Shown here: piece by piece, positions 24,305 through 26,342 of the stretch | Position numbering within the stretch: position 1 is the first letter of the stretch | How the letters are laid out: every line of letters begins with the position of its first letter | Source: a virus | Direction: 5' to 3' (one strand) | Length of the DNA stretch: 27,695 bases | Virus record (IMG/VR): IMGVR_UViG_3300045988_163776 | Span: 128,001-155,695 of that record | Translations under genes and position numbers: made by a program | Notes under the pieces: model-generated | The model's input: only the letters and a program-made list of their open reading frames with translations | What the model was told of the DNA's origin: nothing | Databases searched by the model: none

Positions 24305-24333
24305 TTGACTATTTATTTATTTTTTGATATGAT
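24305..24333 (+). promoter_or_regulatory. promoter TTGACT-N17-TATGAT upstream of the small peptide and radical SAM genes
   Basis: Follows terminator 24251-24283. Confidence 0.55.
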
Positions 24334-24414
24334 AAATATATAAGAAAATAAATAAGGAATTAAGCAATACTAATATACAGAGTATTAGATAAAATAGCAA
24401 GGAGAATAATTAAA

Positions 24415-24522
24415 ATGAAATTATATATTTACAAGTGGGACAATGATACTTTTATAGGAAGCAATAAAGGCTATATGGTAAAATATGAAGAAAAGCAGAG
24501 GTTTATAGATGCTATCTCTTAA
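24415..24522 (+). CDS. small peptide (35 aa, MKLYIYKWDNDTFIGSNKGYMVKYEEKQRFIDAIS) immediately upstream of, and overlapping, the radical SAM gene
   Basis: AAGGAG (24399-24404) lies 10 nt upstream of ATG 24415. Overlaps the rSAM start by 14 nt. Promoter at 24305-24333. Confidence 0.4.
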   Translation: MKLYIYKWDNDTFIGSNKGYMVKYEEKQRFIDAIS

Positions 24523-25759
24523 AGAATATAAAGAAGAATACCATTGTCCAATAATCGCTTGCTTAAACATAACAAATCAATGTAATCTTAAATGTCGCTA
24601 TTGCTTTGTAAATCAGAATCCAGAACGCATGTCTTTTGAAACTGCTACAACAGCAGTAACTTATTTATATAAGAACCTAACTGCGCGACGGGAAAAAACT
24701 GGGAATCCGCACCTAAAAGGCACTATTAATTTTTTTGGTGGTGAGCCACTTTTGGAATGGTCTTTAATAAAACGATTAACAGAATGGATAGAAGAAAAGT
24801 ATGCTAATTGTTTCAATTTAGGCATTACAACTAATGGTACACTATTGAACAAACAAATTATAGATTTTTTATATGAACATAAAATAATACCTTTGTTATC
24901 AATGGATGGGGATAGAGAAACACAAGAATATAATAGACCTTGCAAACTTAGAGGTAGTAGTTTTGATTTGGTTAAAACGCATTTATCTTATCTGCTGGAA
25001 AAATTCCCTAATACAGTATTTCGCATGACTATATATGAGGATACTTGTGATAAATTATTTGATAATATTATATTTGCAGAACAACAAGGCTTTAAGTATT
25101 TCTATGCAACTCCAGATAGTAGACATAATTTTTCTAAAGAAAATTTAAAAAAATTAAAAATAGAATTAGAAAAATTTTATAGTTACTTCACTATTAGTCT
25201 AATAAATGGCATTAAACCAATAGAGAGTAGCTTTATAAGAGATATGTTCCTAGGAGTATTGCGTGAGCCTAGTCTTAAGGTTAATGAACTAGACCAATTA
25301 ATACCAAGAGATATAATGAGATGTGGCCTTGGTACTGTAAGCATTAGTATTAGTCCAGATGGTAGTATATATGGGTGCCAAGAACAAGTAACTAATAATA
25401 AAGAAAATAATCTTTTTTATTTAGGGGATATATATAAAGGAATCGCGGGCGACCACCATATCAAGCTTTTAAGTGAATACAGATCGCTTTCCGCAATCAC
25501 AAGTGAATCCGCAAGTTTATGCGAAGATTGTGGGTATCGTAAATTATGTTATCAAGTTCAATGTCCTTCAATGGCAAAACAAAGATTTGATAATTTTTTT
25601 ATATTGCCAGAGACAATGTGCTTCTGGAATCGAACTTTATATGATTTAACAAAACAAGTTTTATCAATATATAATGAAAATATAGAACGATATTTAACAG
25701 AAATAATTGAGGAGGAAGAGGAATATGAGTTATATTGTAGGAGGAACAACTTATCCTGA
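24509..25759 (+). CDS. radical SAM enzyme with C-terminal SPASM-type auxiliary cluster domain (anSME/peptide-maturase-like)
   Basis: CNLKCRYC is a CxxxCxxC motif. GGEPLL is present. CGLGTVSISISPDGSIYGC and CEDCGYRKLCYQVQC are SPASM-like Cys motifs. 416-aa ORF with no in-frame TAG. Confidence 0.85.
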   Translation: MLSLKEYKEEYHCPIIACLNITNQCNLKCRYCFVNQNPERMSFETATTAVTYLYKNLTARREKTGNPHLKGTINFFGGEPLLEWSLIKRLTEWIEEKYANCFNLGITTNGTLLNKQIIDFLYEHKIIPLLSMDGDRETQEYNRPCKLRGSSFDLVKTHLSYLLEKFPNTVFRMTIYEDTCDKLFDNIIFAEQQGFKYFYATPDSRHNFSKENLKKLKIELEKFYSYFTISLINGIKPIESSFIRDMFLGVLREPSLKVNELDQLIPRDIMRCGLGTVSISISPDGSIYGCQEQVTNNKENNLFYLGDIYKGIAGDHHIKLLSEYRSLSAITSESASLCEDCGYRKLCYQVQCPSMAKQRFDNFFILPETMCFWNRTLYDLTKQVLSIYNENIERYLTEIIEEEEEYELYCRRNNLS

Positions 25760-26342
25760 TCCAGAAATAGCTTGTTATATGACAGATTTAGAAGATTTAC
25801 AAAATATCTATGCAAATAAAATAAACAATTATTTTGCAACAGATAAAATAGCAAGCAAATATTATGATTGGGTAAATAATAAAGAACATATAGAACCAAC
25901 ATATGCTTATACATCAGAGGAAATTATTGATATATTATGCTTTAATGAAGATAACAATGGTATCGTGTCAGTATTGCCATTATTTGTATACCTTACCATA
26001 AAAACGAAAAATTGGTCTGTAAAAATAGAAAATATTACAGATGAAATTATTGCTTATACAGAAGCTAATGTAAATGGCTTTAATAATGATTTCCTTAATT
26101 TAATAAAAGAGCAAGTGTTAGAACAATATCCAGGTTTATGTAAGTTTGTTGAGACCGTAGGCGTAAAAGAAGATAATAATACTCAAGAGGGTATTTCTAT
26201 TAATGACAATTTTCTTGATAAATTTGCTTACTATTGGAAAAATGATTGTATGGTAAATATAGAGTTTCCAAGTAAATCTGCTAATGTTGATTTAACTTCT
26301 GGATTTACAGAAGAAGAAAAAAAACGAGCAGAACAAGTTTAG
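25725..26342 (+). CDS. hypothetical protein (205 aa); terminal TAG 26340 (read-through would end at TGA 26370-26372)
   Basis: ATG 25725 is 9 nt after GGAGG. Overlaps the rSAM 3' end. Confidence 0.7.
   Translation: MSYIVGGTTYPDPEIACYMTDLEDLQNIYANKINNYFATDKIASKYYDWVNNKEHIEPTYAYTSEEIIDILCFNEDNNGIVSVLPLFVYLTIKTKNWSVKIENITDEIIAYTEANVNGFNNDFLNLIKEQVLEQYPGLCKFVETVGVKEDNNTQEGISINDNFLDKFAYYWKNDCMVNIEFPSKSANVDLTSGFTEEEKKRAEQV

Follow-up and report, generated by a model that had tools for sequence, protein, structure and literature searches.

A radical SAM/SPASM enzyme and a cysteine-motif protein encoded together in a TAG-recoded phage

Enzymes that combine a radical S-adenosylmethionine (SAM) core with a SPASM domain include thioether synthases, which are known for small secreted peptides – peptides made on ribosomes and modified after translation (RiPPs) – and for one enzyme subunit, QhpC. 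PapB and QhpD use Cys-Asp/Glu acceptor pairs, and QhpD, acting on QhpC, is a precedent for placing Cys-Asp/Glu thioethers inside a protein, structural or enzymatic, instead of a secreted peptide. A further bacterial system is predicted, the CXXX-repeat maturase (TIGR04115), in which a radical SAM/SPASM enzyme is paired with a CXXX-repeat target; these targets are short peptides. The subject here is a radical SAM/SPASM enzyme encoded on the plus strand at 24509–25759 in a 27,695-nucleotide (nt) stretch of viral DNA (positions 128,001–155,695 of the IMG/VR record IMGVR_UViG_3300045988_163776). This whole stretch is called the window, and unlabeled coordinates refer to it.

Gene neighborhood and homology suggest that the enzyme crosslinks a co-encoded 389-amino-acid (aa) protein with cysteine motifs, with thioethers the probable linkage. 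We hold this reading with slightly more confidence than doubt; the pairing of enzyme and substrate, the thioether chemistry and the structural role in it are all putative. An earlier, sequence-only reading of the window had proposed that the enzyme modifies either a short peptide encoded just upstream or, alternatively, a virion or lysis protein. The second proposal fits the locus and is the one favored here, as the conserved neighbor is a Cys-motif protein, in the window fused to an NlpC/P60-fold hydrolase.

The enzyme and its closest described relatives

The enzyme is 416 aa long and its gene has no in-frame TAG codon. It belongs to the radical SAM superfamily by its match to Pfam Radical_SAM (PF04055; 5e-15, 56.5 bits with a cut-off of 29.5) and by its C25xxxC29xxC32 and FFGGEP (G77-G78-E79) motifs, both invariant in an alignment of 32 homologs. 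Seven C-terminal cysteines are invariant in the same alignment (C272, C290, C338, C341, C347, C352 and C371), and they follow the seven-Cys pattern of SPASM domains (CX9-15GX4C … CX2CX5CX3C … C), with a CX4C as the fourth pair in the window. The Pfam SPASM match itself is weak and below the cut-off (E 0.026, 15.2 bits with a cut-off of 21.5). The alignment to the solved structure 5wgg, described below, takes in the SPASM domain of that structure over its full length. The CxxxCxxC, GGE and SPASM cysteines that the sequence-only reading had pointed out were all found in the 416-aa open reading frame (ORF).

A database search returned at least 1965 homologs of the enzyme. The best 120 all have E values below 1e-83, nearly all are ca. 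370–480 aa long, none is named, and several come from contigs of 110–230 kb. In PHROGs the enzyme is phrog_1802, a "radical SAM domain-containing protein" (1.7e-27) without functional or substrate annotation. The Nei-Gojobori ratio of non-synonymous to synonymous changes (dN/dS) for the gene is 0.12 relative to its orthologs in each of two related loci (L093 and L006; related loci are labeled L001 and upward), and the gene is under purifying selection. The gene is real and intact, and by homology its product is a maturase-type radical SAM/SPASM enzyme closest to CteB, PapB and QhpD.

The sequence-only reading had assigned the enzyme to the class that matures peptides or proteins, and profile searches agree. 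The top NCBIfam matches are all maturases that crosslink Cys: PapB (1.7e-46), a nif11 maturase, SCIFF (7.6e-33), CcpM (7e-32) and QhpD (8e-31). The best relative of solved structure, found with a profile of the 32-sequence alignment, is 5wgg (E 7e-40, covering residues 94–444), which we take to be CteB, the SCIFF thioether synthase. The CxxxCxxC motif of the phage enzyme begins at residue 25, while the alignment starts at residue 94 of 5wgg, so the phage enzyme has no N-terminal RiPP recognition element (RRE) domain. The lack of that domain fits a target that is a protein and not a leader peptide.

The phage enzyme differs from each of the described systems. It shares the radical SAM core and the full SPASM domain with the CteB/SCIFF maturase (TIGR03974), whose substrate is also Cys-rich, but it lacks the RRE, scores 114 bits where the family cut-off is 425, and is phage-encoded; its partner is a 389-aa hydrolase (virion proteins of 170–790 aa in its relatives) and not a peptide of ca. 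45 aa. PapB (NF047865), which matures freyrasin with its CX3D repeats, has substrate units of Cys-x3-acidic form that resemble the C-(E/Q)-x-x-C tracts described below. The score here is 159 bits with a cut-off of 340, though, the acceptor-like residue directly follows the Cys, and the targets would be domains of large proteins, with no genes for a leader peptide, export or a protease seen. QhpD (TIGR03906) gives 107 bits with a cut-off of 453, and the target here lacks a quinohemoprotein context; CcpM gives 111 bits with a cut-off of 500. The bacterial TIGR04115 targets have the same period as the phage tracts, but the score is 78 bits with a cut-off of 350, and the CXXX-period tracts lie next to the enzyme in distant relatives, with only residual motifs left in the window. 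The anaerobic sulfatase-maturing enzyme anSME (4k37) is likewise an RRE-less radical SAM/SPASM enzyme that acts on a full-length protein, but it is a much weaker match than 5wgg (E 5e-14), its family (TIGR03942) gives 66.6 bits with a cut-off of 349, and the neighboring proteins lack its target motif. The enzyme would work like a maturase of the ranthipeptide (PapB), SCIFF or QhpD type, but with scores below the cut-offs, no RRE and no adjacent short Cys-rich precursor peptide with a leader it falls outside each of these systems.

It is very improbable that the enzyme instead serves auxiliary metabolism or modifies nucleic acids, in the manner of QueE, viperin or the like, and lies in this position by coincidence. 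Phages do carry such radical SAM enzymes and there are weak QueE-like and viperin matches here, but these (1e-4 and 1.5e-13, respectively) compare with 1e-46 for PapB. The full seven-Cys SPASM domain also speaks against an enzyme of this kind, and coincidence is difficult to reconcile with a gene position that is conserved in tail modules beside Cys-rich proteins.

Some homologs of the enzyme contain an intein (Intein_splicing and LAGLIDADG), for example the 728-aa protein P0099. In locus L095 (2197–4395) an intein lies within the CxxxCxxC motif (CRYC / intein / CFVNQ). In a distant group of IMG/VR phage contigs (L071–L091), in which the enzyme is 24–26% identical to that in the window, four radical SAM paralogs are found in a row, the first of them followed by a Cys-containing protein of 192 aa.

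Cysteine-rich partners of the enzyme

The proposed target is encoded on the plus strand at 26356–27525, in an ORF that is recovered when TAG is read as Gln (in-frame TAG codons at 26419–26421 and 26902–26904). The 389-aa protein has an N-terminal Cys-motif domain and a C-terminal NlpC/P60-fold hydrolase. The first motif, CRGCMSFC (26383–26406; C10, C13 and C17), is followed by G20 and Q22, the latter encoded by TAG, and the second is QCCICN (26995–27012; Q214, C215, C218 and N219). Across 14 homologs with identities as low as 33%, conservation is at least 90% for C10, C13 and C17 and complete for G20, Q22, Q214, C215, C218 and N219. The hydrolase domain (27025–27525) has a DCSG catalytic-Cys motif at 27151–27162 and an invariant H346; a papain-like fold with catalytic Cys and His places it with the NlpC/P60 (C40) and CHAP hydrolases. 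The protein is probably a tail-associated or lytic enzyme. A Foldseek search with the model of this protein, two-thirds of which is of low confidence, found no significant match in the PDB or a viral library.

Partners of the enzyme elsewhere were collected from 80 IMG/VR loci with relatives of the enzyme and from loci found by protein look-ups; ORFs were called with or without recoding and the proteins were clustered. The largest cluster other than the enzyme itself is that of the gene immediately downstream of it, in 41 of the 66 non-redundant loci. Its members are 79–788 aa long and have dense Cys tracts at one terminus, N or C, or at the two termini together; CSKCNSSCQDCNTCESCNDKCN and CETGCEVSCQDSCETGCMTTCE are examples.

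This association was counted in 41 non-redundant loci in which the enzyme is 30–48% identical to that in the window. The neighbor was defined as an ORF of 100 aa or more whose start lies between 150 nt before and 200 nt after the stop codon of the enzyme gene, and a protein as Cys-dense if some 40-aa window of it had at least six Cys. An adjacent ORF was found in 35 loci; all 35 were Cys-dense, compared to 10 of the 296 other ORFs (Fisher p 1e-38, for loci that are not phylogenetically independent). The stop codon of the enzyme gene and the start codon of the partner often overlap in these distant loci.

The partners have a regular Cys spacing, with 441 cases of CxxxC and 250 of CxxC. In the CxxxC units the Cys is followed by E or Q in ca. 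70%, then by S or T, and then by S, G, T or A. The domains joined to the tracts are of the fn3, bacterial Ig-like or Hoc-like decoration type, or are large and unannotated. The loci lie in modules for tail and baseplate, and in two of them (L028 and L059) the neighbors are tape-measure, baseplate-wedge and tail-fiber proteins. No NCBIfam or Pfam model matches the Cys-tract proteins.

The 389-aa protein of the window is related to these partners. A profile of the window clade aligns to six distant Cys-rich partners with a probability of 95% (hhalign, E 2.5e-8), over a span from 'CxGCQSFC' to 'QCxxCN' that includes the non-Cys core (WN…, IIYG.YF..LE). In the distant homologs, the first motif has its counterpart in the unit that closes the N-terminal Cys tract, and the second in 'QCxxCN', the unit that opens the C-terminal Cys tract. 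In the window clade, where the enzymes are 49–100% identical, the gene order is enzyme, a gene for a 215-aa protein, then the 389-aa protein; in locus L003 the homolog of the 389-aa protein directly follows the enzyme, with no 215-aa gene between them.

The pair is also found elsewhere. The nearest GenBank phage with the enzyme gene, phAss-1 (OQ749652), has the same pair; its record calls the enzyme a "hypothetical protein" and gives no annotation for the Cys-rich ORF. In its locus (L092, OQ749652.1) there is a 600-nt annotation gap directly after the enzyme gene (ca. 7155–7680 in locus coordinates). The protein encoded there, Cys-rich, 174 aa long and with TAG codons in its frame, is homologous to the other partners. 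Genomes of cultured anaerobes carry the pair as well, and the carriers are probably prophages; the hosts are Peptoniphilus indolicus (ATCC 29427, L117), P. duerdenii (ATCC BAA-1640, L121), Aedoeadaptatus nemausensis, Lawsonibacter faecis (NSJ-52, L106), Clostridium tepidiprofundi and Fervidicella metallireducens. Many phages of anaerobes thus share the enzyme-target pairing, which appears to be undescribed: full-text literature searches found no paper on a phage radical SAM enzyme paired with Cys-repeat virion proteins, which is not proof of novelty, and the word "radical" is absent from the phAss-1 paper.

Intramolecular thioether staples are proposed because the nearest relatives of the enzyme form Cys-to-carbon thioethers, and because the E or Q after Cys is reminiscent of the Cys-Asp/Glu pairs that PapB and QhpD use. 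In the proposed mechanism the radical SAM cluster would cleave SAM to a 5'-deoxyadenosyl radical, the radical would abstract hydrogen from a residue of the target that serves as acceptor, and the target Cys thiolate, held at the auxiliary SPASM cluster, would then form a redox-insensitive thioether staple. The enzyme and its substrate would be the conserved core of a late operon. The lineage of the window would have a reduced version, with the terminal unit of each Cys tract only, placed on a lysin, and would have gained the 215-aa gene between enzyme and target. A rationale may lie in the hosts: disulfides would be unreliable in strict anaerobes, while thioethers would be redox-insensitive and protease-resistant.

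A different reaction, with the Cys motifs in another role, is unlikely. In this alternative the motifs and tracts would serve for metal binding, Fe-S binding or redox chemistry, and the enzyme would do something else – epimerization, C-C crosslinking, an anSME-like oxidation, or modification of another virion or host protein. The CxxC and CxxxC repeats do look like metal-binding sequences, SPASM enzymes catalyze many reaction types, and the enzyme scores under every NCBIfam family cut-off. Against it stand the tight adjacency in 35 of 35 loci with often overlapping stop and start codons, the strong preference for E or Q after Cys, which recalls the acceptor pairs of PapB and QhpD, and the nearest relatives, which are all thioether-forming. 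The sequence-only reading had suggested a check for formylglycine motifs in the neighbors, an idea that found no support: the (C/S)x(P/A)xR motif was absent from the four neighboring proteins.

Several points weigh against crosslinking of the 389-aa protein. The substrate is assigned only from adjacency and homology, and its CxxC and CxxxC motifs could be metal-binding instead. All of the NCBIfam matches are far below the curated cut-offs, so the chemistry is not confidently transferable. The counted loci share ancestry to an extent that makes them non-independent, and their ORFs were called with a simple script. Clustering of Cys-rich proteins by BLAST may be driven partly by composition, a concern that is countered by the profile alignment, as it also covers the non-Cys core. 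In the model of the 389-aa protein, the N-terminal domain is of low confidence, with a predicted local distance difference test score (pLDDT) below 50, and lends no support to accessibility or proximity of the motifs. The target in the window clade keeps only three plus two motif Cys, so this lineage may no longer have the modification, or may have a different one. Finally, the 215-aa gene is inserted between the enzyme and its proposed target, with a role that crosslinking of the target leaves unexplained.

A broader and more tentative proposal, which we regard as somewhat less probable than not, is that phages of strict anaerobes staple their tail, baseplate, decoration and lysin proteins with C-(E/Q)-x-x thioether ladders, using their own radical SAM/SPASM enzymes. 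This would be a redox-proof covalent reinforcement of virion proteins, made by an enzyme, and a hitherto undescribed kind of virion maturation, with the window as a pared-down version on a lysin. Such a new type of covalent modification in virion biology would bear on how stable particles are in the gut, which is reducing and rich in proteases, and would explain many of the unannotated "radical SAM" genes in the genomes of gut phages and prophages. Enzymes that need no leader and staple Cys repeats within folded proteins would also be of interest for protein engineering.

In four loci a region with a DUF2828/DUF7788 protein lies near the operon of the enzyme (L001, 10745–13248; L003, 9387–13239; L004, 10626–12173; L095, 6775–8289), the gene being 0.6–3.5 kb 3' of it, past the point that corresponds to the end of the window. 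Two of these, L001 and L003, also encode a protein there that is similar to the major vault protein (Vault_3, MVP_shoulder). Vault-like genes are unusual in phage.

The 215-aa protein and the 35-aa ORF

The 215-aa gene (25725–26372, plus strand) includes a TAG codon, read as Gln, at 26340–26342. The sequence-only reading had described a 205-aa protein overlapping the enzyme gene. The overlap stands, at 35 nt between the start of this gene and the end of the enzyme gene, and the length becomes 215 aa because the phage reads TAG as Gln.

The 215-aa protein might itself be modified, or might be required as an adaptor or chaperone that presents the target to an enzyme without an RRE, although we consider either role distinctly unlikely. 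Its gene overlaps both of its neighbors in the same operon, and the protein, confined to the window clade, is kept in most members of it (L001, L006, L007, L011, L013, L093 and L095) with an invariant Cys in 'WKN(D/G/N)C'. But this is its sole universally conserved Cys, and the gene is absent from L003 and from all loci in which the enzyme is less than 49% identical. The protein resembles neither the Cys-rich partners nor any family: matches in Pfam, NCBIfam and PHROGs were sub-threshold only, a PDB profile search gave nothing, and hhalign against the Cys-rich families gave no match. Its AlphaFold2 model has a mean pLDDT of 39 and is unusable.

Upstream of the enzyme, a 35-aa ORF (MKLYIYKWDNDTFIGSNKGYMVKYEEKQRFIDAIS) lies at 24415–24522 on the plus strand. 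The sequence-only reading had described it as a peptide with a good ribosome-binding site and no Cys, and both details were borne out for the copy in the window: AAGGAG is located 10 nt before its start codon, and its end overlaps the start of the enzyme gene by 14 nt.

Close relatives of the window differ in this ORF. Locus L095 has the terminator and promoter described below and the flanks GATAAAATAG and GAGGTTTATAGATG, but exactly 100 nt (24398–24497) are missing. On the plus strand of the window, this indel segment holds the Shine-Dalgarno sequence, the start codon and most of the codons of the ORF; with the segment missing in L095, GGAGG is found directly before the start of the enzyme gene. 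The ORF is present, with four amino-acid changes, in a 97%-identical IMG/VR contig; its amino-acid identity in L006/L012 is 88.6%. In L093/L094, where the enzyme gene has 91% nucleotide identity, there is a 36-aa variant (MKLCICKWDDDIFIENDKGYTIAIYQEKQRFVNAIS) with an in-frame 3-nt indel. The Nei-Gojobori dN/dS of the ORF is 0.2–0.4, calculated from very few sites. The ORF may be a real small gene, because its frame survives the 3-nt indel and because of this dN/dS.

Farther away the ORF disappears. In L001, L003 and L007, where the enzyme is 57–63% identical, the promoter is followed by a ribosome-binding site and the enzyme gene without a small ORF between them; in L011 an unrelated 107-aa gene takes its place; and tblastn found no copy in L013 (enzyme 49% identical). 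A phmmer search of 1.84 billion representative proteins found the ORF in two clusters only, that of the ORF itself and that of the 36-aa variant. The co-occurrence of small ORF and enzyme that the sequence-only reading had proposed to check is thus limited to a very narrow lineage.

Since the ORF is confined to a narrow lineage and absent from relatives with 49–63% identical enzymes, it is, on this distribution, a narrow-lineage accessory and not the substrate that maintains the enzyme family. It is a recent and dispensable addition to the leader, and may be either a small gene or a coupling upstream ORF.

The proposal that the 35-aa peptide is a RiPP precursor matured by the enzyme, for example with an aromatic or Lys-Trp crosslink, accordingly looks highly improbable to us. 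Its good Shine-Dalgarno sequence and 14-nt overlap would suit such a role, as would the K-W-D motif common to the three 35/36-aa variants and a frame that stays open in L006 and L093/L094 despite ca. 18% nucleotide divergence and an in-frame indel. However, the ORF is missing from L095, with identical flanks, as well as from L001, L003, L007, L011 and L013, and its two clusters compare to at least 1965 homologs of the enzyme. Positions 4 and 6 alternate between Tyr and Cys among the variants, and the copy in the window has no Cys, yet the nearest relatives of the enzyme are Cys-thioether synthases. The lack of an RRE leader-binding domain also argues against a peptide precursor.

The 107-aa gene upstream of the enzyme in L011 (588–911) encodes a CxxC…CxxC, zinc-ribbon-like protein, and the leader slot 5' of the enzyme gene appears to be a variable insertion site. 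The 35-aa ORF was considered as a remnant of this 107-aa gene and rejected: the 'WDDD' likeness is insignificant, as shuffled sequences reached at least the same score in 44–367 of 2000 cases.

Genetic code and organization of the window

The phage reads TAG as Gln, as seen from in-frame TAG codons at conserved Gln sites of the upstream C1 peptidase and at the invariant Q22 of the 389-aa protein, from the ORFs that are joined by this reading, and from a tRNA with the anticodon CTA. In a one-frame translation of the Peptidase_C1 region, the stops fall at papain-family Gln sites ('VVD*G*SETCVACS'; 'NQGQ' motif). Reading TAG as a sense codon raises the share of the window length in plus-strand ORFs of at least 80 codons from 67% to 81%, and fuses the split ORFs at 18434–20881, 23291–24241 and 26353–27525. 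ARAGORN found 16 tRNAs, including the suppressor tRNA with the anticodon CTA, which would decode TAG (16887–16974, plus strand). TAG at conserved Gln in late genes and a suppressor tRNA-CTA agree with the code 15 clade, and phAss-1 is classified in the "Caudoviricetes code 15 clade". The source is a TAG-to-Gln recoded gut phage of ca. 155 kb whose host is probably an anaerobic member of the Clostridia. A nucleotide search with the locus found no match among GenBank phages.

With this code the locus is annotated as a unit of four overlapping genes in a recoded phage: the 35-aa ORF, the enzyme, the 215-aa protein and the 389-aa protein. The sequence-only reading had counted three genes, and the 389-aa NlpC/P60 gene has to be added because it overlaps the end of the 215-aa gene. 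That reading had also placed the unit between a peptidase-SLH gene and an NlpC/P60 gene. The upstream border holds, while the NlpC/P60 gene lies inside the unit.

The upstream gene (23312–24241, plus strand) encodes a 309-aa protein with Peptidase_C1 and SLH family matches and five in-frame TAG codons, and is syntenic in L001, L003, L007, L013, L093 and L095. A hairpin with a T-run that resembles an intrinsic terminator is found at its end (24251–24272, plus strand). This hairpin is kept in L006, L093 and L095, and one of different sequence occupies the same place in L001, L003 and L007. Next is a promoter-like site at 24305–24333 on the plus strand (TTGACT, a 17-nt spacer and a TG-extended TATGAT; a consensus match only), which is consistent with the promoter-headed unit of the sequence-only reading. 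A 'TTGATAT(A/G/T)AT' element 5' of the enzyme gene is kept in L001, L003, L006, L093 and L095. A plus-strand scan for terminator-like sequences found none between the genes of the four-gene unit. Two further candidates in the leader of the enzyme gene were rejected: a riboswitch, with no Rfam match near the gathering score, and a structured leader, with a fold z-score of +0.38, which is nothing unusual.

Elsewhere in the window, the early proteins encoded at 1092–2735 and 5291–6700 both have an 'L(C/S)(L/V)HPLD' motif and Cys-rich, zinc-finger-like C-terminal regions; by eye they look like paralogs. The tRNA array spans 7380–16974, and two of the ARAGORN calls have odd anticodon loops, of four bases at 11037–11109 and two bases at 13082–13156. 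Among the confidently coding genes before ca. 15 kb, only 5291–6700 has a TAG codon, close to its 3' end. In-frame TAG codons are found from ca. 15039 onward, and late genes hold up to 10. The ORF with 10 (15039–16001) encodes 320 aa, is visible only under recoding, and has weak C-terminal matches to DUF2726/DUF5889 and repeated 'W(H)CKCDCG' motifs.

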